Source: Tubulanus polymorphus (lineage: Eukaryota; Animalia; Nemertea). From it: a stretch of DNA of 64,000 bases. The DNA lies in the NCBI RefSeq assembly GCF_964204645.1, contig NC_134029.1, positions 13,108,850 through 13,172,849 on the forward strand. The letters are read 5' to 3'. The translations under genes and the position numbers were made by a program. This document shows positions 21,135 through 56,025 of this stretch, in pieces (within the stretch, counting starts at the first letter, position 1; the number at the start of each line of letters is the position of its first letter). The notes below the pieces were generated by a model. That model was not told the DNA's origin. It did not search any database and worked only from the letters and a program-made list of their open reading frames with translations.

Positions 21135-21555
21135 GGATGGGATTTAAACGTCAGGAACAGTTAGAACCGCGTAAGGTTGTTCTTTATGGAACGCGATTCA
21201 TGCAATAAACATGACCATTGTTACGACGTAGGATAATTGCTGCGCCGTAGTATATTTGCGTCGGTGTATATTTTCTCCGACGTAGGATAATTGCTGCACC
21301 GTAGTATATTTGCGACGTGTCTACTTTTCATCGCATCTATTTCGCTGCGACGTGGGTAGTTTGTAACGACGTAGCTTATTTACGTGAAGGTTCCATAGTT
21401 CACCGTATGGTGGCGCCACGGTATTATATATTCAATAAAGTTAGAATTTAATTGAATCATATCGCTCTTTTCGACGCAACATAGTACGCCACAATCCGAA
21501 ACTTTCGCGCTTTCCTTCGAATCTAATCTAATCTAATCACGCCGGTATACAAATC

Positions 21556-24500
21556 ATGGATGCAATTCTTTCCGAGTTGAAACTTGATGAAGTAATAGAA
21601 ACATTCCGGAGGGAAAATGTAAGGATAACTATTCAATATAAGGACAATAAGCCCATCCATCCAGATATATACATAGGCCTACCACTTACCACCAGTGTCG
21701 AGTGCCGCTGCCGGCGGACGATACGTTGATGGATCTGGATGGATGGATCGTCGATATGGAGAAGATCCAGACCATATCGTCGCCCGGCACGTGCACCCAC
21801 TCCCGGACGATCGTCTCCTGTTGATGGAAATGAATTGTGATATGTTAAGATCATTTTATTATTATAATGACTAATGACAGGCTAGGCAGCTTTACAAGCC
21901 TGAAGTAATGTCTTGTGACGTGTAATAAGGATGTAAACTAAGTGCTCTTCTGGCGCTGGTATTTCTCAATAACCGGTAACAACATTTTTCCAGGCGCAGA
22001 GTCTAGGCCTACTCTCTCGAAGCGGTAACATAATTGGGCTCACAGCACAAGCGAGATAATGTGTTTTGCAGAATATTTTCATTATCTTATTCAGGTAACT
22101 CCAGCAGCTGTCGTAGCAATGCTCGACACTGACCTCACCTCCATGGGAGTAACAAGAATGGGCGATCGAGCACTCCTGAAAGTGAAATGTCGGCACTTTA
22201 TATCATCAACTTGTGTTAATCGTCCAAGTGAGTAAATGGGAATTTACAATCATAAGTTGTAATAACGAGTACCAGTACTAAACCTATGCTTTAAATTTTT
22301 AGCTGTACCTATTCCGTCCTATGACATAGGCAAGGAGAGGAAAACTTTATTTACATCCAAAAAAAAGGATCCGAAAAACAAGTCGGCTATGATGAAATTA
22401 ACTTTCTTTTGTCTAGGCAATCCTGACTGTGTAAGTTATAGATTTTCATTCATATACCAGCAGTTCAGACATTGAAAAGTTAATAGGCCTATTGTAAAGC
22501 TGTTTTGATTAAAAAATACCAAAGTAACTGTACATTGTATAACTCAAGTTAATAACTTGCTTTTGCAGAAGTTATCTTCGAATTATCACTAATACGATCT
22601 GTTTCAATAATGGTTTTATTTCATTGCTTCCAGATGGTTATTCCGCATGACAGGGAAAGTAGAATTAGCCTGATACAGTCAGGATTGGGCGAGAAAACAT
22701 TGGAAATAGAAAAAGATTCAACATTCATAGAACTTCGAGGTAAATTGTTCGAAGTGTTTCCACAGTTGTCCACCGGTGGTGGTTTCGAGTTTCTTGCTGC
22801 CAGGGCAAATAAAATGTTGGAGCTGCTTGACATTGAAAGCAGCTCCATCACACCGTATGCCTTGAAGAGCCTTGTGGCTCGAGGAAAAATCTATATTCGC
22901 CCCATACAAAGAGAGATATTGTCGCAAACTACTCCAAAGGTGAGTCAATGAACTATTTTCTGCTGTTCTTATAAATGATCTTAAGTATGAATAAAATTTG
23001 TTTCTGGTTGTAGGCGGAATCAGTGAAAGAAAAGTGCTTGAAATGCGATCAGGAATTTCCACTCTCTTTGTTGAGGGAACACACTGAAAGCTGTGACGGG
23101 TATATATTTTTTCTTATTACAACGAACTTCACAGGACCAGAAAATCAGAACCCAGTTCCACAGTTGTGAGTTAAGATTTGACTCCGAGTTAAAACATTGA
23201 AAATGAACTAATTTTAACTCAGAGTTAACTCTAACTCACTACTGTGGAACCGGGTCCTGTTGGTTAAAACCAGTATAAAATTAATTTGTCTTACTTGGGT
23301 CGCAATTCTATATACATGTATGTTATCCGTATCTGATGAATTGATTTATTGTTTGTTATGATGAGGATTCCACTCTACAGATGAAAGGAATTAAATTTTT
23401 AAATATTATTCTTAAATCGCTAGTTTGATCGATGATCTACCGAAGATTTCAAATGCTGCTGCTGCAGCTGTTGCTGCTGTTAAGAGGAGCATTTCGTCTG
23501 TATGTATAGCTTGTAATATACATGTACATTGTAACAAGATGTTTCAGATTGCAGGCAATAACAGTTTATTATGTTTGTTGTATCTGCTGAATTAAAAAGT
23601 ACACTCACTAAATATTTTATCAGTGATAAGTTTTCTATAATGGACCTAAGGATTATTATTATTATGGATTACAGACAAATGATGCAGAAAGAAATCCTAA
23701 ACAAGTTCGGCCTAATTCAGCCTACAATTTCCACAGGTACGTTTCTTCAGCAGCTATATTCCATATTCGCTGTATATGTTTTACAATTCATCATCAGGTG
23801 TCAATACTACCTACCATACATGTAAATGTAAGATATTTAATGCATTATTAGTTTCATAAAAAGCCGAGATGATTGTCTTAAATGGCTTGCTTCTTTCCAG
23901 CATCCTGGACACACCCTCTGATTCTTGTACTAAATTAGCTTATATAAAATGCATAATTGGTTTTATTTTAGGCACCAGGAGTTTATTGATCTTACTACCG
24001 ATTTAGATATGATGTTTCCAGATGATGACAGTGATGCAGATTTGAATCAGGCAATTGCTAACAGCTTAGCCGAGGTGGTGGAACCACAATTGAAAGAGGA
24101 ACGGTAAGCCACGGTCGTAAACTTTTCACTGTCAACGTGAATTGTATTAAACTCAGGAAATTGAAAAACTATATTTTCTTGCATTAACATTCATAGACAA
24201 TTTCCTATCAGCTTTTCACGATGCCACATTCACACTTGTCATGGATAATCCAAATTTATTTTACAGTTACGGCATCATTATCTAAAAGAACAAAGGTAGT
24301 AGCATGGATATATTTTTGTTACCCAGTCTATATTCAGGTCTCTGCTTTTTATATGTCTATGTGTACTTTCTTAGGCTATCGGTGTGTAGATTTATTATAT
24401 ATGGTACATGTACATGCTTTCCTTCTCAATGGGGAACCCACAACACCAGCTATCTATGGAACGCGATTCACCCACCAGATGGCGACAGGTCTTCCGTTCT

Positions 24501-26718
24501 CAAAATCAGTTCATTGAATTTCATTGAACTGAATTTTTAGACTCGCGAATCCATATACTATGCAAATATGCAATAAATTCATTCTTTTACTTAGGTATCG
24601 GAAAGATGAGAGAAAAATTCATTCAGATTTAATTAATCGAAATGTGGAAGAAATTGAACGCGGACGACCAACTATCTACCACCGAACCTGGCGGATCCTC
24701 GCCTGCCATGAGTGGAATCCTCGATTGCCGCAGTAGCGGTGTGTGGGTGCCCCATACACTCTAACCCTAACCAAAAAAAGTATTTGTTAACATTCACAAA
24801 AGCGACTGTAACCAAGTTTAAATCACATCATTATGTTGCACTTCATTAAGGTCTTTTCAATTTATTTTCAAAGGTTAAATATAGAATGAAATATTTTCAC
24901 TTTAGGGATGGCCGTTCTCTTGAGGTTATCGTAAAAGACCACGCTGCCAAGGTAGTTGAACAAGATTCCGAAGAGACATTGAGTTTCACGTGTAGAAGAA
25001 AGTTTATCTTTAAAGATGCCGTTGCTAAGCTGAAGAGGACGAATTCTTCAAAACTAACCAAGCCTGTTCAAGTGACCTTCTTGGGAGAGGCTGGAATTGA
25101 CAATGGTGGTCCTCGAAGGGAATTCCTGGAATTAGTCATTTCAGAGGCTGCTAGATCTCCGCTTCTTCTTGTGCCAGAAAATTCGAGATCACTGAGTCAT
25201 GACTTGGTAGCTCTGGATAACAGATCATGTTTTTCATTTTGGCCAGTTAATAGCTTTGAACCTTATTCATGGCGGGGCTGGGGCCCGCTTTTTTAATTCA
25301 TTAATTGCCAAAATTATCCTGTACGAGAAGTATGATGCCAAAAAAATCGTTGTCGAAGAAGTGCCTGATGTCGATTTACGCAAAAAACTACAACAGGTGT
25401 AGTATTCATTAATTTTTTTAGCCCATTTGTACTGAAGTCCTAGTGGGCTGTTGCATTCACTTTTTAGCCCACTTGGGCTATTGCTAATTCCTCGACCTGT
25501 AGCTTCCTAATGAGTTTCAAGCTCATTGATTTGTATATGTTTACCATGATGTTGAATATTGAATTGTCAAATTGTCAAGCATTTCACAAAGTAGGCATGG
25601 TTTCCCTGGACTCTCAGTTCAAGAGTTTGTATTCGGGTTCATTATAAGACAGTACTAATACACTTTTGATTGTTTCAACTTTCTTTTGCAGCTAAATGAG
25701 ATTTGTGACGAAGCTGAATTGGTGAAATTTGTAGATGAAAATCTAGAATGTCGCTTTGAAATGGGCTTTACAAAACCCTCTATTTTCATAAAATTGTCCG
25801 ACAAACAAAAGATAGTAGAGTATCTGGCCTTGAACTCCCTGGTTCACCGTTCAAAATCAGAGCTAAACCAACTTCTAGAAGGTTAGTATTTTACAGTTTA
25901 GCAGTAGAATTTGCGAATGCAGCTATATTACATTTCGGTCTCAGCTTGGGTTTAAGGTTGTTTTCTGTTCACGCAGAGAGCTCGGTACGATTCTGTTCAT
26001 TAGGGCTACAATGTTTGAATTCTTGTACATCTTATGTTATGCAGGCATGTCGACTCTCGGAGTTCTGGATCTCATCCGCAAATTCCCCTCATCATTCGAA
26101 AAGGTCTTTAGTGGGGCTCCAAGTCCAATGTCCGTAGACTACATGACACAGTTATTTCATGTTGATTACTCCCCTCCTGGATCAAATAAGAGGGTAGAAG
26201 AAGAACAAATTATCATGAATTGGACGTTCTTACTCGAAGAATCATTTGGTAGGTTTAAGCACCTCCTGGTGTTATCATTTATACATCTACAGTCAAAATC
26301 CATTTTAAGGCTGCTATTCTTTTTAATTTCACTTTTATTTTTCACAGAACAAACTTATGTAACAAAATTATTATTTCTCTGCATTCTGAACTTGATAATT
26401 GAAACAAACAATGAGTTATTTTCATTAAATTCTGTTACAGAAGGCAATATCAAGGAAAAAACAGATGTTGGTGAGATGACCCTGTCCTTGGAGGATATTC
26501 ACATGTTTGTCACAGGATCTTCTCAGAAACCAATAATAGGTTTCCACCACAAGCCTAGGATCGAGTTCAATCATAGTGGTGATGGATACTTAGTACATGC
26601 CAATACTTGTGCCATGGTAATAAGACTTCCAGTGAATAAAAAGATGCTTGAGGTTAAAAGTTTTGTCAAGGAGATGACATTTTGTATATACAATTCCCCG
26701 TGATTTGGATGTATATAA
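21556..26718 (+). pseudogene. Transposon-borne HECT E3 ubiquitin ligase, SAM-Ubl/PB1-like-UBZ-SIM-UIM-HECT, 12 exons
   Basis: Phase-consistent exons 21556-21618, 22095-22227, 22303-22430, 22634-22939, 23014-23099, 23424-23499, 23675-23736, 23972-24103, 24906-25396, 25692-25881, 26045-26248, 26441-26718; FLGEAGIDNGGPRREFL, FVTGS, ANTC (catalytic Cys); 1-nt frameshift near 25230 and TGA in place of Gly of the terminal GFG. Confidence 0.9.
23151..23254. mobile_element. Short palindromic MITE in an intron
   Basis: cccagttccacagttgtgagttaa...taactcactactgtggaaccggg imperfect hairpin. Confidence 0.65.
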
Positions 26719-27336
26719 AATGATTTTATACATGCATTCATTTTAAATGGATATTCGAAGTAAATCAACATGAAATCCTCATGACACACATCCCATTTGT
26801 TTGTATGTTTTATTTACTATGTATTAAGTCGGATAATAGTCCTAGAATCTTTACCCATTAAAGCTCAAAGCACCCTTTTTGTCAATAGCTAGTATGACGG
26901 TGGTCGGGAATTGGGCCTGATCCCTCACGAATATAAATTCCGTCCCCGCCCAGCATACTGGTTGTTGACTCTTAAAAGTGCCCCCTCTTGGAATTTATCA
27001 AAGGCAGGTGATGGGAAATGTGCCATCATACACTCACCTTTGATATATCCCTAGAGTGGGCCAGGCTTTAAAGGGTAACAGGTTCAAGGGAAAACCGGTC
27101 ATTGAATTTGTCAGTCAAGGTTTCAGTTCAATCATATTGATATCAAAAGGCTTGTTGTGGATTGACAATTAACATTCCAGTTTATGAACTTATGTTTTAT
27201 TCATAAGACTACTTCGTTATTCATTTATTCAGTCCATTAAGTTTTTATATTTTTTGAACAAATAATACATAACATTGGTGTTTCAGATAAACGATTCAGC
27301 TGGTTTCTATCTATATACAGTCAAGTCTACAGTCTA

Positions 27337-27646: not shown

Positions 27647-29470
27647 TATATTACAATAATAAATGCAGGAAAGCTTGTCGGATTTCAATATAAGCATTTT
27701 TTCCTAAGTCATGTTCTGTTTCCATTGAACTTCTTGACAACTCTTGGAACACTGGTAGATCTGCTTCATCTATGGGACATGGAGTTAAGGGCACCATAAC
27801 TCTCTCGTGATCATCCAAGTTAGCTGCCATTAGTTCCTAAATGAAAGAGAATATAATTGGCACACATCATTTTGAGCTCAAAACTTGTATTACCAATTTA
27901 TAAAGAATATGATTATAAATAAATTAACTGAAAAATTATTCTACTGAAAAAGTTGTGCATGTGTTTTTTTTTACATGCCATATAAAATTTGGCCCTGGAA
28001 CCCAATATTCTCTTCTCTTCAGTGTTTTCCGTTTCCTCTCATCGATTCCATCTGGGTCGACCCGTCTTAACGACTCCCTTATCCGGTCACGCTGAACTCT
28101 AAGGCCTAAACTTTGTATGTGACCAGCATGTAGCTTTTCTCCCCAATTAGGATGAATGGCTACAGCATCTGCCACGATGTCATCAAGAATATCATCTGCA
28201 AATAGAAAAATTATGCTTTATTTGCTAGTAAGAAATACAGTAGACTCCGCCTAAACCAGTACAGTTGGGACTTTAATTTTTTCCACCGAATTAGGCGTTT
28301 ACCGGTTTAAAGAAATGCGAAAACCAATGTAGCTGTATTCAGATATCATAGGTGATTTACAAGACCTTACCCACCTGATAATTTATCTGACATATTAGAG
28401 ACGCGAAGTCCAAATTCCATAACACGTTGAGCAATAGTTCTTTCACAAACATTGAACATAATGCCAATCTCTTTATAAGTGAATGTATGTAGAATAAGAT
28501 ATTCAAGACTTTGATATGGTATCTCTCTTTTAGGTCTTCCACGAACCATTGCTGAAATTTAATTATCTAGCATCAGATTAATAGGAAGAGAAGACATACG
28601 AGTATGACTAAAGGGAGCATCTCAAAATTTCGATAGTTACTTCAATTAGAATAACTGTCTAATTCTTTCTAACCCCCCACCCCACCCTTTCAAAGTTGGA
28701 ACTATTGATTTTCTAATGAGAAACCACAGACAAAGATAAGACATTCTCACGAGTGTATTTCGCAATTATCACAACTTTTAATTGAAAAATAAAATAACAA
28801 AATTACAAGTGAAAAACCTACGGTACAGCCTAGATAAAACTTCCCACAAAACGCGTTTAAACCGCGGTTAAAACAAGATTATTTTACACGCAGTTGTTAC
28901 TTTGTTGCGCGCTTGTTCCAGGCGCGATTAAACGCGAGTGCGTATAAGACGCGCCTAAATCGCGTGTTAAAAGTCGCGACTATTTTGCCCTCTAGCGTTT
29001 AATCGCGATGAACAAATTATCAATTAAATTTTATTCAGTATCATCATACGTAAGTGCCACCTGCGGCAAGTGTAGTCGTCAATAATGTTCAATTCAATTC
29101 AAGGTCGTCGTTAAATCTTGTGGATCCGGAAATAAAATTTACAATCAAAGGTGGTATGATGGCAGAAATACGTAATATATGATATGAATTCATAGTGTTG
29201 TAGGAAACATATGTTAACCCTGACTATTTGTTACAACAACGGCTAATAAAAGCGGATCTGCAGTTTTACCAGCAGGTATCTACAGGTAAGGTAACTTTCA
29301 CGTGTTGATGTTTTAGGACTGTTGCTTTTTTATGACATGTTGCGTTGGTTTCCTCATGATGTCGATCGGATACAATTGGTTTTCTAATGAGAACAAAGAC
29401 AAAAGTCTGGCGAAGACGGGCGATTTTTTCGTGCGATTTTAGTGTGATTCGAGAAATAGGATGTTTAATA

Positions 29471-29797
29471 CATGGTTCCCACAGTTATATGAATTCAAAA
29501 TTCCCAAGTTTTCCCCAAGTATTTCATGGGTGACTTTTCAATTTTCCCAAATGCAAATGAACACATATTGTCATGCTACAGTCAACATTTTAGTAGTGAC
29601 TGGTTGATAAAGGTGATTCTCAAGGGAAACTGCTGAAGAAAGTTTCCCTTGGCAAATGCAATACGTGAAATGTAATGAATTTCCCAAATATTTCCCTGAT
29701 ATGAGAATTTTTCAAATTCCCAAATATTTCCAAACCGGGAATTATTATTTCAAAATTCCCAAGTTTTTCCCAATTTCCCTGTTCTGTGGGAACCATG
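29471..29797. mobile_element. hAT-like MITE with 6-bp TSD
   Basis: TIR catggttcccacag; ttaata directly repeated on both sides; ttccc subterminal repeats. Confidence 0.7.
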
Positions 29798-32057
29798 TTA
29801 ATATTGTGCGACGGAAAATCGCACGTCGCAGTGAAATCGCTCATCAGTCGTGGGAGCTAGCGACACGATGGAAAAATAATTTTAGGCCAATCAGCGACCA
29901 CCGATACATCACGTGGTACTTCCAATAAAGGATACGCTATCTTCCAGCTCATTTATGAGATTGTTATGAAGCTAAGATTCATTGACTTTATTTTCATGGA
30001 ACATAATTACATGTAATTGAATATTTTCTCTTACAAAAATATGCCACACAGCCCATAATGCCCACGGCTGTGCCTGCTTGATATCCAACTTCGAACCAAG
30101 TATTTAGAGCGTTCGACTGAACACAACAAAATCAAATAAGCTCCCAACAAAGCATTGAAGGAATCATCCTCGATGTCTGCCATTTTGTTATCAATCGCTC
30201 TCATCGCCGCTCGCAAGTCGCATGCACGTGCACACAGTCCCTGGTTTTACCCATCATTGGATAATGAATCGCACGCGATTGCTAATCGCTGCGACCGGCG
30301 ATCGATCGTCACTCATCTGCGCTCCGCTAAGGATAAGTTCTTATGAATGTATTTTGGTAACAACTTTTTATTGAAAATGGAATAGAAAAATTAATTTGAA
30401 AAACCTATCAAACTCTAATTGATTTTATTAAAACAATTTGATATGAAGTCGCCCATTATGAGAGCGGGTTCGAATCCTATAGTAGTGATCAATCGATGGG
30501 AAACCTTCAACCCTACACCCCCTTCTGCGAGTTAGCCTCTAATTGAAGCAACCATCGAAATTTTGAGATGCTCTACCTGCTATGCAAACAAGTCAAAATA
30601 AATTAACTACCAACATTGTCATTTAATCATGTTTAGATTAATTTCTTGCTTTTGCTTGCTTTTGACTTTCGATGTACATCAGACTCTTCTCAAACTAGGT
30701 CCATTTAAGAATAAGTATTCCTTCACCTACATCGGCCATATAGTCCAACTCGGATAAGTCGTATTCTAGTTTAATTTACTCAGTTCTATGTCATTTGGAT
30801 TACTCGCTAACGTAATGATCGTCCCAGCTATTGACAACTTAAGCGACTTCGACTTTACAGGACCCTCTTGTTTTGAAAAAAAAATATTCAAGTTACTCTT
30901 TGGTTCAAAAACTATATATTTCATTACATTTGTCCTCTAGTCTCTTCTGCAGTTGGAATTAACCCTTTTGTCATCTCTGGCTGTACATGCACAACAGTAA
31001 CTATGGATCCCAGCTGTTTCTTAAGACTGAAAGGACCTGAATAAATATGTTACTGACTTGAAATCCATGTACAGTCGACTCAATCCAATGGAAACTTCCT
31101 TCAATGCTTCCGACATTTGTGATACAGTATAACTCACTTTTTTCTGATGTCTAGGGACTGTCCAGATTTTTCTCTGAATAATGAACAATAGTTTACATAG
31201 TTTCTGATTGATAGTACCAATAATTTCATCCCGACTAAGTAAAAATCTGGATTTCAATATCAGAATTAAGTGAGTTCTACCGCATTTCAGAATTAAATTC
31301 TACAAATCCTTGATAAGGTTACTGAGGTTATATTAAACCTCATCAAATTTTGACAGCCAATAATCGATCAGGATGCCATCTATTGCACGGAATAGGATCA
31401 GAACAAATGGACAAATTCATAGAAATACTATGGAAATTGTCAATTTACCTGGAGGTAAACATGGGATGAACCTATTTCAGCTGGATTCAACTACCCGCTT
31501 TTTGAACATGGGATGTTAGAAATTTTAAAATTTTGAGTGGCATTAGTTATAAGAAAATAAGAGTTTTTGGATCTAGACCAAAACTTCTGGCAGGCAATTT
31601 GAGAAACAGCTCCTTTCCACATTTCTATTACAAACACGCTTTATCTAGATTTTGACCTGATTTGGATACTGATTGTGGTTCACCTATAAGTAAAATATTC
31701 AATTCTAAATTTCTCAAAAGAAGACTGATTCTATGATCCAAATTAACCTGGCTTTGACTATACAATAGTCCTTAAAGGTTGAATCAGTAACTAATTCACA
31801 GGGCTGCCAACCCTCCCGAATTATTCGGAATCCTCCCGATTTGCGTGAAGAAATTCCGACGATACGATCGGGTATACAAAATTCCGATTTTTTTTCCTTT
31901 TTCGGCGATGTCCAATTTTCCACCCGCCAGCGCGTTGTAACACAGTATGATGACTTGGTAGAACAGAATTGAATAGGTGGGGAATATATATGCACGCGCG
32001 CGGCGGATGAGTGCGTCGCTATATATACTGTGTACGTGGGTCAGGCGATAAACAGCG

Positions 32058-32095
<38 letters not shown>
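32058..32095. repeat. (TG)n microsatellite
   Basis: About 18 TG units. Confidence 0.95.
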
Positions 32096-32098
<3 letters not shown>

Positions 32099-32634
32099 AG
32101 AGTAACTGTGTTATTGATTTTATCTACGCATGGCGCACGATTATTTCGTAGTAGGAGAGCAGCTTCTTAATTTGTTTCAAGAATCAAAATAAAGTTCATT
32201 CGTTTTAAAATACGTTGTTTTAAATCATTCTTGTGAAAATATTATGACATGTGGCAAAATGTGATTGTTATTGTCAAATTGCTCTGCATCGTTTCGGAGA
32301 AGAATTGGTTTACTGCGGTAATTAGCTCGTTTTCGCAACGCGATGAGCATTCGAAGATCCGGGTTAGATTTCAACGTGTGGACTCGTTATTTGTGGTTGA
32401 ATTGTTTCGGTAAGCAATTGCTTTGTTAGTTTGAACCTTAATGTTGTCACTCTTGTATTAGTTTGATTTAAAAAGATAATTTAAGATGCTTTTGAGCAGT
32501 GCATCTCAAAGTAAACTTTTAGTTCGCATATTTGGCAGATGGCAGCACCATCGAGTTGCATGTAGATTTAGAGACTTTTTACTGTTTGTATCTTTCAGTT
32601 CTGTACGTGGAATTAATGCTGGAAATTAACAGAA

Positions 32635-35499
32635 ATGGATTTATTTACTGTCACTGAAACAGGATCTGAAGTTGAAGACGAAGAACCTTTTCCCTCCGAT
32701 GTTGGTGATGACACCAATGACGATCGTGAGCCTCCTCCGAAAAAAACCAAAGAAAATGAATCTAGTAAAACGAAGCAGAGGTTTAAGAACGAATATTCTC
32801 AGAAATATTCTTTTATTAAACCTAGTTCGCTAGGCCGTTATTACGCATACTGTGATAGATGTGGTTCGCATATCAACATATCGCATGGTGGCCTTAATGA
32901 TATAGAAAAAAAACATTTTTCCACAACTAAACACAAGTCAGCAGCTAATGTAGAAAAAATCTCGAAGTTTTTTAGTACTTCGCAGGAGAAAGAAAGTTTG
33001 ATCAAGGCTGAGACATTATTCACAGTCTTTGTGGTTATGAACAGTTTACCTCTCGCAGTTTCCGATAAGGCTGGGCAACTATTCAGAGATATGTTCCCTG
33101 GCCATCCGAATGCTACGAATTATAAATGCGGTCGCACCAAAACAACTCATATTGTGAATGCGGTTGCGACTGATATCGTGTCATCTACTGTATCGAGATT
33201 GAAATCATCTCCCTTTGTTCTTGGTGTAGATGGTTCTACGTACAAACAAGAGACATATTATCCAATCGTTGTGAGATATGTGGATGAACAGTTAGAAACA
33301 AAATTGGACCTGTTAGCTAACCCAATATGGAATCAGTCGCACACAGGAGAGGCAATATTTAATATAATCAAAGCAGAATTAGAAGTGAACGCTATACCAT
33401 GGGAGAATCTACTTTCGCTTGTGTGTGATAACACAAATAGCAATGTTGGAAGACACAAGGGTGTAATAAAATATGTTAGAGATCACCAAAAAGAGGTACA
33501 CCTCGCTGGATGCGTTAATCATTTGCTCCATTTAGCATTGAAGAAAGGCCTGAATACAGCCATTAAGGTAACTAAGATTTTACTTTTGATTTCATTTTCA
33601 ATATGTAGTAATTTCACCATCTTCTAATTTTCATCAACTCAGATAGGATAGCCTTATTCGTTCAGCTTACACGTGCTGCCTTATGGTTTACACATAATCA
33701 AATGACATAAACTCAATAAAGTTAAAGTTCTAGAAACTTGTAGTTGCTATTCTGCTGTACCATTGTTATACTTTCATCGTTTGAAATCGGTGCGCATATC
33801 TTTTGTTTACAGCCTTTATTTGACTTTGATGATCTATTACGCCAGCTGCATTGGTATGTAACCAAAACGAGTAAAAGATCTGCAAGTTTTCAAACCATCC
33901 AGAAGGAATGCGGCCTGCCAGATCATACGATACTGAAGCATGTGGCTACACGCTGGCTCAGTATGGGCCCAGCCCTTAGCAGGATGCTGGAACAATGGGA
34001 AGCGCTGAGGAGATATTTTGCGAAAGAGATAGGCCATGATACTGATGGAGATGATGATCAAGAGTTTCTCGACGATTTTGATGATGGCCCTGTCACCGCA
34101 GGAGCGATAAAAACTAAATTACACAAGTTTTTCCAGAGACGCACATCAAAACTATACACTGCATTTCTGATTAAAGCGATCTCGGTAAGCATTATATCAC
34201 CAAGTCATAACCCTAAATAATTAGGATTATAAACTTTTTTGTGTTTTATAGGGTCTTTCTTACTGATAAAAGATTTTATTTCACAAGCTCTTATGATTTC
34301 TTTTTTTACAGGTGTTTGAGAGCACAAATGGATACCTTGAAACTGAAAGTGCATTGGTTCACAAAGTGAAACGAATTTTGGAGCGACTTATGTACAGACT
34401 ACTTCTCTGTATATGCAAGCCAGCAGCATTTAACCAGGGTTGTACACCTTACTCAATCGATTTCACCTCAAGGTATTTTTCATCCATCCAGTGTCATTGT
34501 AATTCCTTTGTAAGTGAATAAATTTTTTTCACTGGAGTAGATTCTTTTAGGCCTACATAAAGAAATGTAGTGAGTTTCATTTGCATTACACTACTTCTTC
34601 TGCTGTTAACTATTATTAATGCTGTCTGATGTAACTTTTATTCAGCTCCTTGCATATGTATTTATGATAATTTTCTTTACCCCTAGGTATAATATAAAAG
34701 ACAAAAAAGACCTGTTCATAGGGGATGAGGCTCGGAAATTGGTGGAAACAGTCACTGACGAAACCAAGAAGAAATTCTATCAGGATGTTGTGAAGTTTTA
34801 TTCAGCTGCCTGCACCTACCTGAAGGAGAAGGTGAATCCAAAAGACCAGCCTCTTTGGAGTCATGCTGAGGTAAAATATTCATTGAATTTGAGAACTCAA
34901 AAGAGTATTTATTCTTTCGTAATTGTATTGTTTCATAGACTTATCAACTTTTGTGTAACGATTGATAATAATAATTTTTGTAGGTAGCTGATCCACTGAT
35001 GCGTAAGGTTAGATCATTCCAGTCAGTGATATACTTCATGGACAGATTCCCTGTAATTCTTGGAGATATTGTTTTTAGAGATGACTTGGAAATCGAATAT
35101 GCTGACTTCCAAACTTTGCATGATGATGATTTTCCATCTGGTTTCCATAGTCCACCAGCAAGGGCCGATGAAAAATCAAAAGAAGTGACTGTTGAGACAC
35201 AATGGAAAATCATACATAAGATGTTGGATGATGTTGGGTCGATACGTTTCAGATTGCTGCCAAGGGTGATGTGTCATATATTGCTTGTACCAGTCAGTAA
35301 TGCTGGCTGCGAAAGAATTTTTAGTTTCGTAAGGAAGAACCGTACGGATTCAAGAGCAGCTTTGGGTCAGAAGACCTTGCAGTCACTGATGGTTATGAAA
35401 ACATCCACACAATGCAAAGACTTTCAACCATCCTCAGATTTGCTTAAGAAAGTGAAAAGTGCGACATATAATGCTTTGAATAATATTGATACAAACTAG
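32635..35499 (+). CDS. hAT transposase, 5 coding exons (32635-33567, 33813-34184, 34312-34472, 34687-34870, 34984-35499)
   Basis: BED/TTF-like CxxC..H..H finger; VDGST, VCDNT, CVNH, TRW, SNAGCERIFS motifs; splice phases consistent, no stops. Confidence 0.92.
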
Positions 35500-41430: not shown

Positions 41431-41575
41431 TTTTTTCGAGAATCGCTTCCCTGTGTTTCCCTTTAAATCCTGAGAATTTAACCGCGAACAAACCATCGGA
41501 GTCATCTTTGGGGGTGGCGAGTGCCGAATACCATACCCCAGTTACCGGATCCCAGGCCTGTACAATATTCTCCAT
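41431..41575 (-). CDS. Probable first exon with a Tudor/chromo-barrel-like domain (candidate 5' part of the BEN gene)
   Basis: MENIVQAWDPVTGVWYSALA...FAVKFSGF matches the VxAxxxxGxWYxA..VxFxGY pattern; ends in a gtaagt donor. Confidence 0.55.
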
Positions 41576-44500: not shown

Positions 44501-45298
44501 CGGATGAGTAGATTGGCAATTATGATTGCATTCACTTTAGTCATAAGGCACTGTATTACTAACTTATGTCGTCACAACCATTGTCTGCATTATTGGTGGA
44601 TTGTGGCCATTTTCAATTCTTAAATCTTCCAGATTCTCAAAATCGACTTCTTGAAAAATCAAAATGTCCATCATTTAGCAACATATTACAAACTACAAAA
44701 CAAGAAGTAATTTGAGAATAAATTATTCCCAAGCATATAGAACTTAAGGCTACAGTAGGCCTATACGTAGGTTGGTTTCCAGCTAGCGATTTCGTAGCCT
44801 ATTGTTGCGATGAACATGCATAACGTACCAGATCGGACCTGGATTTTTTGTCTGTAAGGGCTTATATACGAAATACCTAGCATTGTCTATCATACATTAT
44901 CCATTATATATGTATACACCATATTTTGTATGTTATACACATAAAAAGTATGTGGTACAATGCGATCGTCCAATATACAGACACTGAGACAGACACTGGA
45001 CAGAGGCCATCCCCTCAATTAACACTGAGCCCGCTTGTGAAAACTAACAACATTAACATTAAACTAAACAATTGGCCTATGCAATAGCATAATTCTCCAT
45101 GTCTCTTGTTTGTCCTGTCAACTTTATTGAACTGTCAAACCAATAATTTACTTGTTTAACATTATTATTGATAGGAAGTGGATATTTTGCCAATGCGGCA
45201 TTATTTTAGTAAACGCTATTTTGCCAATGGCTCGTTCTGATTGGCTGAAATATATTGTGACGTCATACGGGATTTTCCGACACTAATTCCAACTAAAA

Positions 45299-48200
45299 AT
45301 GGCGCGTTCTTCAACTTCGTCGGGGATTTTCAAAGTTGGAGACAAATTTTCGTCTTTTGACGATGTTTTGGCTGCTATAAAGTTGTTCGAAGATGAGCAA
45401 CTTATGTCGTATTGGCGACGTCACACTCGTTTACTGGATGGCGCACCAAAGAGTACACCAAAGACAAATGAGAACGCTATAAAATACTATCAAGTATATT
45501 ATCACTGTTTGAAAGGGGGAAAGAAACACAAGACATGCAGCAAGGGCTTGAGACCAAACCAGAAGTATGTATATATCACTAAGGTCTATCACTAAATTGA
45601 TTTTGTGGTTACTACTTAGAATCTCATGTACAGTGGGATCGGACTTAGAACCAGGATTGGACTTTGAGTAGGCCTACTGAAAATTCTTCATTATTCCTTC
45701 TCTCATTATTTTCCATTTTTACGTTCTAATTATATCCACATAATAAACACATAATGCTAAAAAAAGTTGGCAAAATCAATATCTAAGATGTAGATTGCCA
45801 TTAGAAGTTTAGATGGCAATATTTATGTCTTGATATTTAGGGATTATTATTGGAATGCGACTGTCTTGTTGTGCAAAGATATTTTGACAGCTGAGCAACC
45901 ACTAGCGCCATCTATCGAACATAAATTGAAGCTTTTGTCAGCTTATAGAGCCACCAATATATAAGGACCAATATATAATGATATATAATAGAACATTAAG
46001 CTTTTCGGCGTTGGTGACTTAATATAATGAAGGAATAATGGATATGAATAATGAAAAAAAACCTCATCAACTTTTGACATTTGAGGTGACAGTAAACTGA
46101 TACCTTAATTCTATAGGCTTTATAGCTGCAGTAAGACCATCACAACATTAATATGTTCGCAACATTATTTCTAGGTATCGTTCTTTCTAAAACAGCTTTA
46201 AACTCTCGTTCTCTGTTTTTTATGGGCCTTTTTAATCATGTTTTCCTTTCCCTGTATTTACAGGACATTCCGTCAAGATTGTGAATCATGTGTTCACTTC
46301 CGCGCTTCAAAGGATGGACAACATCTTGTGGTGACATATCTGAATACTACACATAACCATGAATGCACAGAGGGGGCATATGCTTTTATCCCTAAGTGTC
46401 GGAAATTAGATGAAAAAGAGACAATCGAAGTTAACAATATTCTAAAGACCAGACCGAACAAAAAAATCTTACAAGATCACATCAGGAGCATTTCTGGCAA
46501 GAAGTTAACTTTGCGTGATATTCAAAACCTACAGAAAAGATTAAAGGGGACGCCAGGTGACTTAGAAGAGATTTTAAACAGTCTCATTTCTGAAAGAGGT
46601 AATTATGATTCATTTCAGATTCATTTCAGTGATTTATATAGCGGCTTTTGTAGCGGCTACCTATCATAATTTTTTCCATTCTATCGGACTGTAAACACCA
46701 TTTTTTCACTTTGAATCTGGCTCATCTTTTTTGGAAAGGATTTTAGTTAGTTATACTGTGAAATCTCCTCTTTCGTTGGCTCCGTCAAGAAAGGGGGATC
46801 GGAATAATCGTTGCCACAGAACCTCTAAAATAACCTAAGATCACGCCGAGATTTACCTAACGTCTTGCTTGCTTTATTCAACACGCCAAAGAGAACACAA
46901 GAATCACTACACAATATGGTGTCACTAAAACGCAGATTTGGACTCGGTAAAAGCCGGATACCGGACTTTACCGGTCCATCACAATACTACGGACCCTATG
47001 AACCAAAGGCCTATAGGCCTACAATATACAGATAGGCGATATTGATAACTAACTTGCCAACTTTTATTTCCAGACGCTACGGTAGAAGTCGTCAGTGATG
47101 ATACCGATATGCTTCGCGCGATATATTATCAGGATAATATCATGAAAAAGAAATTCAACAAGTATCCAGAACTATTGATAGCAGATGCTACTTACAAGCT
47201 TAATAATCTACGAATGCCAGTTTTTCTACAAATAGTGGTTGACGGAAATGGAGAAAGTGAGATAGTGTCAGTTTTTTTGATCGTCAGCGAAGATCAGGGA
47301 ACGTTAGAGATGTTGCTTGAGATATTTAAGAAACATAACCCTGCCTGGACAAGAACAAAAACTGTTCTTACCGATAAGGACATGACAGAGCGTGCCGTGT
47401 TTAAAAATCTGATGCCTGATGTTAAGTTACAGCTGTGTTTGTTTCATGTCCTCAAATCAATGCGAAGAGAAATACATTGTGAGAAAATGGGCATCCGCAT
47501 CGGAGAGAAAAATGCTTGTCTAGAAATAATTCAAAAAATTGCGTATTCAAAAAATGAAGAAGAATATACGAGCAACGTAGACAAACTCAATAATACTCGA
47601 ATACAGCCCGTTATCGACTATTACAGACATTCTTGGCATGATATCAGATCTGAATGGGTGTTAGGTCTGAAGCAATCCTGTCATTATGGCAATAATACAT
47701 CTAACAGAATTGAAAGCATAAACCAAAAACTGAAGCAGGTTGTGGCGCGATTTTCGAATTTAGAGAATTTCTTTCATGATCTCAAGCTTGTAATTGCTTG
47801 TCTGAGACAGGAACGCGACAGTCGTATTGCAAATGTAATCACCAAGCGTTTGGTTCATTCACATCCCGCCGGTTCACCAGCAGCCATGTACATGGACCTT
47901 CTGACACCTGTTGCGTATCAGCTTGTGATTGATCAAATCAGCTTGGCATCAAAAGTCAGATTCCAAGATGTTGCAGATAATCCCGAATTTGTCGAAATGC
48001 GCACATCACATGGAGTTGCAATGGTATCCTGTGAAACATGTACATGCAAGTATGTGGAATTCAATTCATTACCATGTCGACATATTTTCGCACTTCGCCG
48101 GAAGAGAAATCATCATCTATATACCGATACCAGTGTTGCCGAGCGTTGGAAGATAAGATGTTATATAGATCACAGTCTACAGCAGTATAATTGTACGACG

Positions 48201-50728
48201 GAAAATGTCAATGATGCTGAGATACCTATTACACAACTTGGTCAACAACGTCGTAAGACGGCTTTGTCCCAACCACAGAAATATAAAGCTGCATTTGGTG
48301 TTGCTCAACGTCTCGCTACACTCGCAAGTGAAGGTTCGATGACCAAATATAAACAACGCATAAAGGTGCTACGTGATCTTGTTGCACTGTGGGAACAAGA
48401 TAGTCAAGCTGTAGCCATTGAAATTGATCGTGAAGAGGTAATTAATAAGCCAGTTAATAAGTGAAACTAACGATGATTTGCTAGCTAGTTGCAAAAATAA
48501 CCCATGTTGCTTGTGAATTGTTTCGCTTTTTTAGGACTGTTAAAATTGAGTTTTTATGTACATATAGACAGGGGTCATAATCAAGGACCTTGAATCTGCG
48601 GAAACTCATATCTGCAAAAGAAAGATACTTGCCAATTGCATATTTTGTTCATAGCTTTTTTGATGATAATGAGGTAATTATAATGGACCAATTATAATGG
48701 TTCATTCAAGCTAAGTCTACACTTGCTTCTTCGACCTGGCTTGTGTATCTATAATACGCTAGAAACAATACAGAGTTTCTGGCAAACCTGAGTCTTAGAA
48801 ACCAGGTGTGGATTCGTACTACCATAGTGAGTAAGTGTAGACGTTACTCGCTGTGGACATAGGTTTTCATCAAACCTGTGTTTACCATTGCAGGTTCAAT
48901 GAGCTAGTGTAGACACAGCTATATGCTAATTTAAGTTAAATTCCCATTTTTGTTAGTTGAACAATGATTGTTTGTTGCATGAAGTTAATCAACTCCTGTT
49001 AAGTTGCATGTTGTTTCATTTTTTTCACTCCCATAGATGTATGATTGTTATACATTTGTACTTGATAGATGAATCATTTCAAGTAAGTACTTAACATCCT
49101 TCATTTGACCTTCTAAAGAAGAATTGGGATAATATTACACAATTTTGTATACAATTACAGTACTTTGATCCACTTAATGTTGGTAAAAATAAGGAAATCA
49201 AAAATAATAAACGTAGACAATAATTGTGAGATAGGCCCCTACTTGGTGTATGAATGTTGTATATGTTCATCTTTTACAGGAAAGCAGCAACGTTCGTTCT
49301 ACAGAAAGATCAGTCGTTTCTGCGTCGTCCGGTAGTAGTTGTAGTATTCAACGACAACAGCCGTCAGTCATTTCTGCGTCGTCCGGTAGTAGTTGTAGTA
49401 TTCAACGACAACAGCCGTCAGTCGTTTCTGCGTCGTCCGGTAGTAGTTGTAGTATTCAACGACAACAGCCGTCAGTCGTTTCTGCGTCGTCCGGTAGTAG
49501 TAGCTGTAGTATTCAACGACAACAGCCGTCAGTCGTTTCTGCGTCGTCCGGTAGTAGTTGTAGTATTCAACGACAACAGCCGTCAGTCATTTCTGCGTCG
49601 TCCGGTAGTAGTTGTAGTATTCAACGACGACAGCCGTCAGTCGTTTCTGCGTCGTCCGGTAGTAGTAGCTGTAGTATTCAACGACAACAGCCGTCAGTCG
49701 TTTCTGCGTCGTCCGGTAGTAGTTGTAGTATTCAACGACAACAGCCGTCAGTCGTTTCTGCGTCGTCCGGTAGTAGTTGTAGTATTCAACGACAACAGCC
49801 GTCAGTCGTTTCTGCGTCGTCCGGTAGTAGTAGCTGTAGTATTCAACGACAGATACCACCGTTGATACAGTCGGCGCCATCGTCATCAGAAGTTTTCACT
49901 TCCACAATCAGTTCACCTCATTGTCAGGTAATATATATTACTTCTCTTTTTGATAACCCTAAATTTACTTTACTTTAGTTGAAATGATGATTAAACCTGC
50001 CCCAATTTGTCCTAAATTACAGTAATTCTTTCTAGGACAGATGCAGAGGATCATTCTCCTCAAGTTTGCAAGATTAATGATATGGATTGATGTCATTTCA
50101 TTTGTATATTCCCATCTATCAACTTTTTCATGTATCAAAGCTCAAATTACCGCCAGTTAGGAAAGTAAGGGGCAGACCCAAGGGTGCCGAACTAACTGCG
50201 GTAGGTATACCAAAAAAGCGATTCAAACCTGCTTCAAAATCGATGAAACCAATCCCATATCACAAGAAGTTGCCACAGGAGAAAGACAGATGTAAGTATT
50301 TACCACTCTATTATTTGTTGGGTTCAAGAAATTAGGCCATTGTATAATTATGCAGGTCATTTCTATTTTAAGGTATGTTAAAATGGTTTGTGAGTGAGTT
50401 TGCAGCTGATGCTGCCCTAGAAGGAAAACTTTTGCTGAAAACCGATATAAAGAATATTCAACATATTTCTCATGCCTGCAAGGATGATTCAATTTCAATA
50501 TCCAGGATACGACATTACTTTTGTGAAGAATCGTGGCTGATGTTAAAGGCACGAATAACTGAACTGCAAAAGATGGGATGGTTATGTGGATCATGCCATG
50601 ATGATCTCCATGGAAATCAATTAGCTTGTGATGGCTGCCTAGAGTGGCATCACCTGAATTGTACCGGCCTTAAAAAGGCTCCTAAAACCAAAAAATGGTT
50701 TTGTAGCACATGTTATACTAATGCATAG
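45299..50728 (+). CDS. MULE transposase (FAR1/ZSWIM3-like N-terminus, MULE DDE core, SWIM finger, repeat tract, AT-hook, PHD finger); exons 45299-45564, 46264-46598, 47074-48437, 49280-49927, ~50141-50291, 50373-50728
   Basis: IADATYK, VLTDKD, CLFH, SNRIESIN, CTCKY..LPCRH, RGRPK and C4HC3 motifs; the 5' boundary of exon 5 is uncertain. Confidence 0.9.
49310..49852 (+). repeat. Coding minisatellite, 54/57-bp unit (~10 copies)
   Basis: Encodes SVVSASSGS(S)SCSIQRQQP repeats in the spliced frame. Confidence 0.95.
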
Positions 50729-53700
50729 AAAGTTGTGAATACACCCACAATGTAGATTAAAGAAACAATAGCTATTGTTTTTATTCTGACATTTCAATTT
50801 GAAATAAATCTCTGAAGATGGGTGGAAGTATTCCACTCGAATAGCTATTGTTTTTTTAATCTAAATATGTTCGTTATAACCGATAGTTCGTTATATCAAG
50901 TATGAAATTAGTCAACTTGTCTTACTTGGGACGAAATTCTTTATTTGTTATATCCGATGAATCGTTGTATCCAAGTTCGTTATAACGAGGTTCCACTGTA
51001 TGTATGTAAAACAAACTTTCAGTTATGACTTAAATAGATTCTGTTGCCTGAAGTTTGAGATTCCAATGTACAGATAATACAAAACAACCCAACTATAGTC
51101 AGTTAAGAGTTCGTTATTGATCATTTATTATTTCATAATCATTCATGATATTGTAAGATTGAATGAGAGATCGTTATTAAGAAGGTCCTATTAAGAAAGG
51201 AAACCTACGTCTTATTAATTCTAAAAGTATTTATACAGAATATACAACAGTTTTTACGATCCTTACAAATGACTATATATAAACAGAATAACAAAAGTTC
51301 TGGTTTCGGCCTTGAGTCAAGTGTATTGTTGATGACCATCGCTGATTGATACGTACAATCTTACTTATCAATTGTACAGCGAACCCCACTTAACTCTGAT
51401 CATTAGGGACCAATGAGATTAATCTGCTTCATGAGGTATCTGGATTAAATATAGGCTTAAATATATTTTTCTAAGCATTTTATGAAGTTACTTTGAAAAT
51501 GATATTCAGATAAACCATAACAATCAAGCTCATCAGATCAAATGGAGTGTACTGTTACATAGTCATGTGTTGCATTCTTTTTGATTACTTGGTACTTTAT
51601 ATTTCATTTCTATCTGCTGGTCTGAAATAAATGTATTCAGTATGTATCAGAGAAACAGGATATGAGAAATAAATTTTAAAAAATTTTGCGATGCATATAT
51701 GACATTGTTTTATGTTCTTCCTTTCTCAAGACTTTATTGAGCTTCTACTCTATGGTGCCAGTATTGTCCATATACAATGATCAACAGTCCAAGCTCGTTG
51801 CTTACAGTCTCCCAGGTTTACCTTGGGATGAAAAGTTGCATCAATTAGTAGACAAGAATATGATGTAGACTGATGGAAATAGGCCCTTAGAAATACATGG
51901 AAAAAAATGCAAAAATAAGTTGTAATGGTTTTATTTTTTAATTTGATTATATCGGGATTCGAACCCGATTACCTAAATCACGTGCTGATGGAATTCCCTT
52001 GAAAATGACGTCACACATTGGCAAAATAGCGTTTACTAAAATAATGCCGCATTGGCAAAATATCCACTTCCTTATTGATAAGGACCAATAAAGTCAATTT
52101 GATTTGCTTAGATTTAAAATGATCTTACCTCCAAATATTTAACATGTAGGCCTACTCGCGTATTTTAACTGGCCTTCTACTTGCAATTTCTTTTTCAAAC
52201 TCCATGCTTGCAAAAGACGAATTCGGTTGGTATACATCGATATTTACCGGTAATTTTTCCACTAAAAAGTGCATCTTTATGTTATTTGTCTTCCATTTTG
52301 GAACACTACTAAAATGAAAACCTCACTGACGAACTGACTAGCTCCGATTAAATGGTTTTCAATGAACAGAAAAACAACCTAGACAAAATAATCTCATCTA
52401 AATGTTGAATTAAATACTAACAGGCCTTATTCATGCACCTTTTTGTCTATTTTTATAATACAGCGTATATTTAAATGATCGTCATTTCTTCACTGAATCG
52501 TTATTTTCAACTTACTTAATTGATTTTGCCTTAGCTTCATAATAACTTAGTATAAGTAATTTTTTTACTAATTAAATATCACTTATCACGATTATTCTTA
52601 AATTCTAAAAGAACTAAAATGCTGATGTAAAACTTATTAATAATTAAATAATCTATTTCAATTAAACTCCCAAGCACCCCTGCGCGGTGGCAGCCATATT
52701 GCCATTGTTAAGCAACACGTTTTCACGCCGTTTTCACAGGCTTTCACGATCTATATAGTATTATATTCTCATAATGATTGCAAAACGCATTGGATGACAA
52801 TGTATAATAGGGGATCATTGACAACTGGACCAAAAGTGACACTGCTTCTTTGTTTGAGGTGAAACACATAGTGGATCATTGAATGATTAGATTCATTAGA
52901 GTGGATTCGAATGGAAGTGGAACAGAAAAAGTCGAAGGCCATTTGATTTATTATCCCGCGTTTAAAGGACGCGTTGTGGATTGTTCAGGTATTATTATTG
53001 TTATGTACATGTAGTAAAGTAAACGTTTATTGTGTTGGGCTTCAGGCCACCACAAGGTCACTAAAAGAATATGCTTATTGGAATGAAAACTAACATGACT
53101 AAGTAAATATTGTAGGCCTAGAATCTTTATTTTTAGTATTGAATTGAATTTGAATTAGTTATGGTTATTAGGAGGCCTTAAATGATTGAATGTCTAGTGA
53201 AAAAATTGTGAGTGATCATTCCAATCGTGAGGGATAAAAATGGAGTTTCTATGGTGTTTATTCATCCAATCTAAAAACCGCAGGATCATTTTGATTTTGT
53301 TGTGCGCCCATCATCGCCATTAAATTTGTATGCTGGACATGAAATTAGGTCGCTGTCGGAGTTTCGATTGTCGGCAAAAACGACGTTAGTGCAATCAATT
53401 CTTGACCATTTTTTTTCAAACTTTATAGGGTCTACACCAATAAGAATTGATCCAGACCAACACTATAAAATTGGAATTCCCATTTTTTGGCTTAAAAATG
53501 TGTCCACCAGGGGATTGTTGGAAAATGATGTTAGCGCGAGAGAGCCTTCAATTTTCCACTGATTTCTCAACAATGACAGTGTGATGAAAATCAGGTATTT
53601 ACATAATAGATTATATGAGCGTCGAAATGGTTTTAGTATAGATTACAGCGTGAGCATTGTAAATTCTTCTCATTTTAGGATGCCTACTCACTATTGAATG

Positions 53701-56025
53701 ATACAACAGCTGCTGCCATACGCTGATTATTCTGAAAACCTAATACTGTTGGGTGCATGCATGCTGTCGTCCACTCATTTAAAAGAAGAACTAATTGTCA
53801 AGGCATTGGACTGGATGCGAAGCAGTGAAAGTCTTCCATGAGGAAAAAAGTTGGACCCAAACCGGGTCAGCTAAATAATACGTAAGTACATGAATTCAAT
53901 ATATAATGGCTAGCGTTCATTTGTTGTTGATTTACAGGGGCGGATCCAAGCTGGAAGAACGAGGGTTCAGCTCTTATGAAAAGGGCACTAGTCAATACAG
54001 GTCTCACGGTGTGAAACGGTAGTATGGGGTTTGTGCACTTCGATCATAGGGTGGAATTTTTCACCTGTGATTCAAAAGGGCACTTGGTCAGAAAAGGGGA
54101 GGGTTTAACGTTTAATATGGCGCTCGAGGCGAACAATCACCGTGTCCTGATGCGTTGGGTGATTCAGTCGAAGGACGTGTTGGATACGGGCGATTCAGTC
54201 GGCGCAGACCCTGACAAATTAGGTGATTTTACTGACGATTTCGTTGCACAACATAAGTGCTCGACGAAATTGCCTAATGTGTCCCCAGCTTTAGTCCATT
54301 TGAGACTTTAGTCCAAGCGGGCTATTGCATTCACCCTTTGTTCGTCTGTTGTTGGAATCCAGTATTTTGGGTTTTAAGTTTTAATACTCTTGATATTTAA
54401 GTTATACATATATCTATCCTAGCCATGTCTCCAGCCCAAAACTGGTCCGAATCAAGATGGCCAAGTGCATTGGCCATTTTCGTTCCCCAAAATCATCACT
54501 TATGCAATTTTTTGAAGTTTTCAAGGGAAATTTTGAAGATGCTTCAATCTTGACACAAGATGGCCATCATGTGACCTTTTTTGTACCCAAAAAGGTCATT
54601 TTTGCCTTGTAGCTGCCTAATGGTTTGCAATTTTTCTTTGAAATTTGTAATGGGTGTACATTCTTAACAATCTAAAACATACGAGACAGATTTTTCGATC
54701 AGTCAAGCGTGACACATTTGGCAGCCATCTTAGTGTCATCAGTTCTTATTCGTATATAGAAAAAGGTTTTTGAAGGAAAATATCAACAGGTTTTGACTTA
54801 TAGTCTTGATATTTGAAAATTGTTACCACTGTTGTAGTATTCATCTCATGTGGAATTGGGGTTACCCAGGTTTTTGTTCTCACCACCAGGGGGAGTTGAA
54901 TATTGAATTATATACAATTTGTCTAATTTATTTTTGTACCTATGAATACTTTATAACATCGATCAATTATGAAATTGTAGCTTGTGACATGTTCTATGAT
55001 AGTGGTGAGTTTCAATGTCCTGTTTCTATTTTATTATGTTGATTGGTTAGCATTCGAAACCATATGGGCATGGTGTCCCTAGACCCCTTGTTTTTCATCA
55101 GGTGGCGTTGAACATTGAAATTTCCAGATTGTCAAGCATTTCACCATATGGCTTAAAATCAAGTCATTGAAGAGTGCAAAAACTGTTAACTGTTATATGC
55201 AGAAGACTCTTAGAAAAAGCTACAGAATTCAATCATCATCACAAGCAGCTGAAGTTGAATTATTTATCCGGGTAAAGAAATCATTTTATACTTTTGCTTA
55301 ATTTTTTTCAAATGGTTATCATTTCAGAACAATGTCAAAATGAGAAGGGTGCGAAAGAGGCCAACATAAGACATGCCATTACTCAAAGATTTATAAAATT
55401 TATGAAGATGAATAAATCAGTTAGTATGGAAAATGTGAATCTCTTGAGTACGTTCATTCTAAACAGCACATGGATTAAGGAGATGGTCCTCACATGGTGG
55501 TTTGATTTGAATTCAACAAAAAATAGCAATTGAAGACACCTGTATTTAGCATGAAGTACACGTGTAAGACACGTGTAATTTTGGATGAAATACACATGTA
55601 ATTAGGATAAAGTACACGTGTAATAAGGATGAAGTACACGTGTAATACACGTGTAATTTGGATGAAGTACACGTGTAATAAGGATGAAGTACACGTGTAA
55701 TTGGGATAAAGTACACGTGTAAAATTGGGCCAATTTTACACGTGTACTTGAAATACACGTGTATTTTCATTTACAATTACACGTGTACCATTTTCATAAG
55801 GGTACAAACTACCCACGTCGCAGCGAAATAGATGCGATGAAAAGTAGACACGTCGCAAATATACTACGGTGCAGCAATTATCCTACGTCGGAGAAAATAT
55901 ACACCGACGCAAATATACTACGGCGCAGCAATTATCCTACGTCGTAACAATGGTCATGTTTATTGCATGAATCGCGTTCCATAGTTCTTTGATATCTGTA
56001 AAGTTTAGAGAAAACGGTCGTTAAA

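Follow-up and report, generated by a model that had tools for sequence, protein, structure and literature searches.

The 64,000-nt window analysed here, the whole stretch of DNA under study (Tubulanus polymorphus, GCF_964204645.1, NC_134029.1:13,108,850-13,172,849, forward strand; all positions are in window numbering), contains at 21185-55983 a broken copy of a two-gene cut-and-paste IS3EU transposon family with a sterile alpha motif (SAM) module at the start of both genes. The element begins TATGG and closes CCATA, agreeing with the TA..TA and TAYGG..CCRTA termini of IS3EU/GingerRoot elements, and the sequence GTTCTT is repeated on either side of it, a target duplication of the 6 bp expected for that group. 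The outer arms of its terminal inverted repeats (TIRs; 21185-21365 and 55803-55983) are 100% complementary, and an extra 119-nt inverted match extends each arm to 297 bp, with 297/297 positions identical once the 12.4-kb insertion in the right arm (43371-55802) is skipped. After removal of this insertion and of a 13.7-kb nested block (28612-42320), the element measures 8,656 bp. It holds two convergent genes, a 12-exon plus-strand HECT ligase gene and a 5-exon minus-strand transposase remnant, whose stop codons lie ~930 bp apart (Table 1). All 11 ligase introns are GT-AG. Coding in each gene opens with a 63-nt exon; a GT-AG intron in phase 0 follows codon 21, and the next exon completes the SAM.

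The SAM exons of the transposase splice in phase to the helix-turn-helix (HTH) exon across the nested block. RefSeq models of T. polymorphus sister copies, P0001, P0002 and P0004 among them, include proteins identical to exons of the element. P0004 agrees with the window model over all 194 residues, from the SAM through to a deletion described below, and is an independent gene model, itself predicted, for the SAM-HTH junction; the first 194 residues of RefSeq XP_074659294.1, from a sister copy, are those of the window model. The P0001 isoform uses an alternative acceptor at 42489, 39 nt into transposase exon 2, which may serve as a switch or may be an artefact of the gene model. The window copy is not autonomous, as its transposase has lost 182 residues including the catalytic triad: the residue before the first catalytic Asp joins straight to the last exon, and all three catalytic residues are gone. 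One contig of sequencing run X1 has 769 extra bases at the deletion site. P0002 is 100% identical to exon 4 of the window copy and retains a complete core (rva_4, 242 bits) whose triad D104/D161/E196 has 34 residues separating the last two (DD34E), and this profile match and catalytic spacing place the family among the integrase-like DDE transposases of the IS3EU lineage.

The ligase gene encodes, downstream of its SAM, a conserved family domain (exons 3-4) with the motifs GLG, GGGFE and YIRPIQ, which we take, as a guess, to have a ubiquitin-like fold, followed by a C2HC zinc finger (25.5 bits) that also matches zf_UBZ weakly. Exon 8 holds a stretch that, judged by eye against the consensus, resembles a ubiquitin-interacting motif (UIM), with no Pfam UIM match. 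The motif HANTC (26596-26610), ending in the catalytic-type Cys codon at 26608-26610, lies near the C-terminus and aligns with the ANTC of UBR5 (E 0.7). Pfam HECT matches exon 12 at E 1.2e-4 and 22.2 bits, just under the cut-off of 23.9, which the relative P0093 exceeds. These features support, at the level of sequence, a HECT E3 ligase-type protein. The reading frame of the window copy is not intact: a frameshift in exon 9 near 25229 gives a first stop after 458 aa, and a TGA at 26701-26703 lies four codons ahead of the last residue. Both lesions are absent from contigs of T. polymorphus runs X1-X3, all from one study, which may include the window's own sample, so that the contigs show other copies or alleles and not another population. 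Lesions in both genes mean that the window copy cannot make either enzyme intact. Ligase intron 8 carries an exact 16-nt copy of the element's own end (24455-24470), for which no opposite partner end was found.

The initial annotation, made from the sequence alone, had described identical TIRs at 21185-55983, an IS3EU-type element and a HECT ligase, all of which hold, with an arm longer than first measured. The DD34E core is seen in a sister copy, and the Cys motif aligns with that of UBR5. Its statement that both gene models splice in phase is borne out for the junctions, including that from the SAM exons to the HTH exon across the 13.7-kb insertion, where the splicing of the exons at 42.4-42.8 kb to the transposase agrees with the independently predicted model XP_074659294.1. 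The genes themselves are not intact, and the ligase frameshift and TGA and the 182-residue transposase deletion had been missed.

The claim in the same annotation that the two genes begin with homologous SAM modules, split by a phase-0 intron at the same position, also stands: the ligase and transposase SAMs align without gaps at 23/54 identical residues, with a Smith-Waterman score of 103 that was reached in 0/5000 shuffles (maximum 46). Codon identity is 64/108 at positions 1 and 2 and 14/54 at position 3. Past the exon edge, the alignment does not continue into the introns or leaders of the two genes. The pattern is that of an ancient duplication maintained at the protein level rather than of recent copying. 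The assignment of both modules to the SAM class proved uneven. The transposase SAM combines a profile match above the cut-off (Pfam SAM_2, 30.5 bits on P0004) with a predicted five-helix fold (AlphaFold with 60 aligned sequences, predicted local distance difference test (pLDDT) 94.6; P0004 folded from its single sequence gave a pLDDT of only 33), and its top Foldseek matches are tankyrase SAMs (TM-score ~0.8, E 3e-3, none at E <=0.001). The ligase SAM gave a weak Pfam match on its second exon alone, and the fold was predicted for the transposase SAM only. The ligase SAM is homologous to that SAM and to many Pfam-positive relatives; it also scores 41.6 bits on a SAM profile made from search hits, a score that is not independent because the hits were retrieved with a query containing the ligase SAM exon.

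Table 1 Features of the element and its insertions, in window numbering.
Feature	Position	Strand	Support
Left target site duplication GTTCTT	21179..21184	.	6-bp repeat
Left TIR, 297 bp, starts TATGG	21185..21481	+	arm alignment
Ligase exon 1, first SAM half, 21 codons, phase-0 donor	21556..21618	+	
Ligase exon 2, second SAM half	22095..22227	+	SAM_1 E 0.099
Ligase exons 3-4 (22303-22430, 22634-22939), conserved family domain	22303..22939	+	90.8 bits, family profile
Ligase exon 5, C2HC zinc finger	23014..23099	+	zf_C2HC_14 above cut-off
Ligase exons 6-8 (23424-23499, 23675-23736, 23972-24103), linker	23424..24103	+	
Ligase exons 9-12 (24906-25396, 25692-25881, 26045-26248, 26441-26718), HECT domain	24906..26718	+	
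Transposase last exon, C-terminal 61 aa, identical to P0002 tail	27651..27836	-	
Deletion site, catalytic DDE core (182 aa) absent	27837..27974	-	
Transposase exons 3-4 (28551-28375, 28195-27975), HTH region to first catalytic motif	27975..28551	-	
13.7-kb nested block in transposase intron 2	28612..42320	.	
Transposase exon 2, second SAM half	42408..42528	-	SAM_2 21.6 bits, above cut-off
Transposase exon 1, first SAM half, 21 codons, phase-0 donor	42662..42724	-	
Inner part of right TIR	43253..43370	-	arm alignment
12.4-kb insertion in right arm, CCCTTATG ends, TA duplication; contains Mutator-like element (MULE) 45174-52071	43371..55802	.	
Outer part of right TIR, ends CCATA	55803..55983	-	arm alignment
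Right target site duplication GTTCTT	55984..55989	.	6-bp repeat

A SAM profile search over 1.84 billion representatives returned 217 matches, 150 of them listed and 148 of those from outside the window family. Among the 44 listed matches of at least 150 aa, sorted by motifs hand-picked after reading the sequences, 28 run into ligase-type motifs, one (P0144) into a transposase HTH and 15 are other proteins; SAM and HTH also occur together in P0056. The SAM subtype is, by these motif counts, apparently tied to the ligase family, and ligases with a SAM of the window type occur in several phyla (named matches come from Ptychodera and Haliotis), with SAM-transposases being rarer. P0093 alone passes the Pfam HECT cut-off among 47 proteins scanned, most of which are fragments. 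As a lead only, a cluster of 80 eukaryotic proteins in the Atlas, chiefly from molluscs where the source is known, has rva_4 matches in 24% and SAM_2 matches in 13%. By eye, P0144, P0115, P0072 and P0151 also have an apparent intron at the position of the window SAM intron, which the gene call crosses or starts a little upstream of; many other SAM relatives have no intron there.

Genomic context was available for 38 loci, 37 fetched by transposase, of which 16 exceed 5 kb. A HECT-like match is present in 8/16 of these longer loci, and the transposase and HECT genes are convergent in L002, in L009 and in the family of L003, L004, L006 and L016, with a weak HECT match in L015; L033 is not counted as convergent, since its HECT gene lies upstream and divergent. 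The superfamily is already known and the HECT partner is recurrent within it. The SAM profile matches 0/38 loci, and none was found on the ligase neighbours of SAM-less transposases either, both gene 5' ends being visible only in L006 and L033. Loci with a SAM-ligase or SAM-transposase were found neither in viral contigs nor in the genome contigs searched. A 16-residue SAM-type match in L030 was judged spurious. L032, L033, L037 and other loci have IS3EU-type genes, apparently split by introns in at least L033, in contigs filed as prokaryotic genome bins; these are probably host DNA contamination.

In L006, the probable first exons of the transposase (+8202) and of the convergent HECT gene (-20734), both positions being guesses, are homologous as DNA (score 93, maximum 45 in 300 shuffles) and weakly similar as protein (65/5000 shuffles reach the score), and encode no SAM. 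The family of this locus also takes in L003, L004, L011, L016, L018 and L024. In L002, positions 1-95, upstream of the transposase exons, match 10139-10233, near the ligase 5' end, over 95 nt at 96% identity in inverted orientation, and the contig ends there. The 1-kb inverted arms of L018 were considered as twin gene starts and rejected, as they belong to another element. The shared 5' sequence in L006 and L002 indicates that twin starts can arise without a SAM. It suggests that copying between the element ends gives both genes one start, which offers an origin for the twin SAM.

We tentatively favour, at a little short of an even chance, a reading in which both SAMs bind each other and so dock the ligase on the transposase. 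The start of each gene lies immediately inside the identical 297-bp arms, and co-expression is probable; long ago, one gene's 5' end was probably copied to the opposite terminus, and selection on the protein then kept it. SAM heterodimers in which a basic end-helix joins an acidic mid-loop are described in the accessible part of PMC5993539, and crude sequence counts of net charge (mid-loop -4 and end-helix 0 for the transposase SAM, -1 and +3 for the ligase SAM) match that polarity, which would fit the ligase end-helix on the transposase mid-loop. In this reading the end-helix of the ligase SAM, being the more basic one, would pair head-to-tail with the acidic transposase mid-loop. The docked HECT domain, with help from the zinc finger as a possible ubiquitin binder, would then attach ubiquitin to the transposase and so limit it or strip it off the DNA after integration. 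The charge polarity, the predicted fold of the transposase SAM, the joint occurrence of SAM and HTH in other proteins, the link of the SAM to the ligase family, the paired absence of SAMs at the loci and the conservation of the duplicate are counted for docking; all steps beyond the SAM fold are ones that we infer. As to substrate, the transposase itself, although an unlikely candidate taken singly, stands slightly ahead of host factors.

Several observations weigh against docking. Neither SAM is the nearest relative of the other: in a set of 149, chosen with a profile of the two, the transposase SAM has the ligase SAM at rank 18, and the ligase SAM has the transposase SAM at rank 20. SAM trees (56 columns, mostly unresolved) neither support nor reject a grouping of both SAMs (approximately unbiased test, p-AU 0.505), and a clade of transposase SAMs is likewise not rejected (p-AU 0.634). 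Most ligase-type SAMs bear an acidic mid-loop and a basic end-helix together, so that self-polymerisation fits equally well, and the polarity is not general, since the mid-loop of the coral-type transposase SAM P0056 has a net charge of only -1. In RefSeq isoform X2 (P0001), the SAM is missing 13 central residues. Of 273 long transposase relatives, the 120 best listed include none that matches the SAM profile, which indicates that transposition in the superfamily does not depend on a SAM; these relatives start with an acidic segment of ~87 aa that is net negative in 114 of the 116 that could be delimited. A pair of SAM-bearing genes together was not seen in another species among the loci, where no SAM-bearing locus was retrieved. 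Finally, the SAM-less twin starts imply that the twin SAM may reflect history more than binding.

A rival reading has SAMs that share an origin, through 5'-end copying between the element ends, but work apart, the transposase SAM multimerising the transposase and the ligase SAM clustering the ligase or binding a host SAM protein, which we regard as possible at a modest likelihood. The nearest solved fold is the tankyrase SAM, which reportedly self-polymerises (PMC4980433); both charged faces are present on ligase-type SAMs, twin 5' sequence occurs without a SAM in L006 (93 versus at most 45) and L002 (95 nt, 96%), and the ranks and trees give no signal of co-evolution. Separate roles would, however, probably require two SAMs of the same subtype, from one element, to diverge enough to avoid mixing, and they sit less easily with the SAM being missing from both genes at the SAM-less loci examined. 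In a broader form of docking, which we consider doubtful, IS3EU-HECT elements would build a private docking pair by 5'-end copying, and lineage-specific matched N-termini recruit the element's own E3 to the transposase for turnover or post-integration disassembly. The matched N-termini would then be SAM and SAM in the window family and another short shared module in the L006 family.

A sub-case of docking, and one that we rate as quite unlikely, would have the docked ligase act on host silencing, chromatin or repair proteins near the element, with the transposase as a DNA-targeting adaptor. Its appeal lies in the TET/JBP dioxygenases of fungal IS3EU elements, proposed to counter silencing, and in the alpha-kinase gene opposite their transposase (both from the accessible part of PMC12730594), together with the weak zf_UBZ match of the zinc finger; against it, domain scans found no chromatin-reader domain in the ligase. 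It is improbable that the transposase SAM is vestigial or usually untranslated, with the working transposase starting at the exon 3 (HTH) methionine: P0002, the sole model with a whole core, does begin inside exon 3 without a SAM, and an in-frame ATG opens that exon, but the SAM exons are included in three RefSeq models at two loci, have open frames, canonical splice sites and codon-position bias, and recur in SAM-HTH fusions of other organisms. Some SAM domains, of the Smaug/Vts1 type, bind RNA, yet binding of nucleic acid (RNA, or DNA through a helix-hairpin-helix part) in place of the partner SAM is very improbable here, given a transposase SAM that is acidic to neutral on both faces and fold matches led by protein-binding SAMs (tankyrase, ANKS, BICC1, Eph).

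The element lies among several other mobile sequences. The nested block at 28612-42320 contains a short repeat with AGGGAGC ends, a 13.3-kb element (28821-42096) and a hAT element (31799-36288). The last, recognised by a Dimer_Tnp_hAT match, has a flanking 6-bp repeat (AATTCA) as against the usual 8 bp. The 13.3-kb element has 20-bp CGGTACAG ends, a clear target duplication not being found, and two near-duplicate BEN-domain open reading frames (ORFs; 37028-37858 and 38808-39770). The MULE in the right-arm insertion has a SWIM finger and a 9-bp duplication (TTATTGATA). The transposon seems to have inserted into the 5' leader of a long terminal repeat (LTR) retrotransposon (20900-21184 and 55984-62330): the frame that opens at 56097 looks gag-like by eye, an ORF at 61622 matches rve integrase, and near 21125 lies what we take by eye to be an LTR end and a primer-site-like motif. 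An ORF (62562-63173) with a match to the Pox_A32 packaging ATPase (E 6e-10) is perhaps the edge of a Polinton-like element. Elsewhere in the window are a pogo-like DDE_1 ORF of 775 aa (11876-14203), an otopetrin exon (17628-18638) and a foldback-like repeat (1657-5373) with 502-nt arms and internal tandem arrays.

Compared with known elements, the transposon shares its TATGG..CCATA ends, its 6-bp duplication and its rva_4 integrase-like DD34E core (as seen in P0002) with IS3EU/GingerRoot, and differs in having a HECT ligase as its second gene and a SAM on both genes. The accessible portions of the relevant papers define IS3EU by TA..TA ends and 6-bp duplications (PMC10045372, whose supplement alignment includes IS3EU-1_CVi_1p, which the P0002 core resembles by eye), describe fungal IS3EU with TAYGG ends and opposite-strand alpha-kinase and TET/JBP genes (PMC12730594), give GingerRoot arms of 100-150 bp (PMC6839031), shorter than the 297 bp here, and term the structure and function of such elements largely unexplored (PMC11934779). 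The second gene in opposite orientation is a likeness to the fungal elements. L002, L009 and the family of L003, L004, L006 and L016 are alike in their convergent transposase and HECT genes and unlike in that no SAM was found on either gene. The transposase SAM resembles the tankyrase SAM and Eph/SHIP2-type pairs (PDB 5kni, 4nl9; PMC5993539, as far as accessible) in its predicted five-helix fold, the initial Gly of helix 5 and its acidic mid-loop. Identity is ~29%, and the transposase SAM has GDR where tankyrase has a more basic motif. Mutator, Ginger and Zisupton transposons carry Ulp1/OTU ubiquitin/SUMO proteases, which, like the ligase, are element-encoded enzymes of ubiquitin-like systems; those proteases act in tag removal, often as fusions with the transposase, whereas the window element has a separate ligase gene.

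HECT is not mentioned in the accessible parts of PMC10045372 (nor in its one supplement), PMC12730594, PMC6839031 and PMC11934779, nor in the main text of bioRxiv 2021.09.26.461848. Literature searches, with Repbase and subscription papers outside their range, returned nothing relevant on IS3EU with HECT, on a transposon-encoded HECT E3 ligase or on transposable elements behind an expansion of G2E3-type HECT genes, and nothing on twin SAMs or a SAM-led DDE transposase. What is new is that the transposase carries a SAM and that the ligase carries its twin, with an intron in common; the signs of recurring SAM-less twin 5' ends are new as well.

The limiting of eukaryotic cut-and-paste transposases, and their removal after integration, are to our knowledge poorly known. 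Even without docking, a SAM-led DDE transposase was not met in the literature searches. If docking is true, a self-encoded ligase with a matching module would form a compact, family-specific degrader pair, giving the element its own protein-tagging control, and transposase control would be testable with two small domains. Many unnamed invertebrate SAM-HECT genes, such as those in hemichordate and mollusc records, would then be re-labelled as likely transposon genes.

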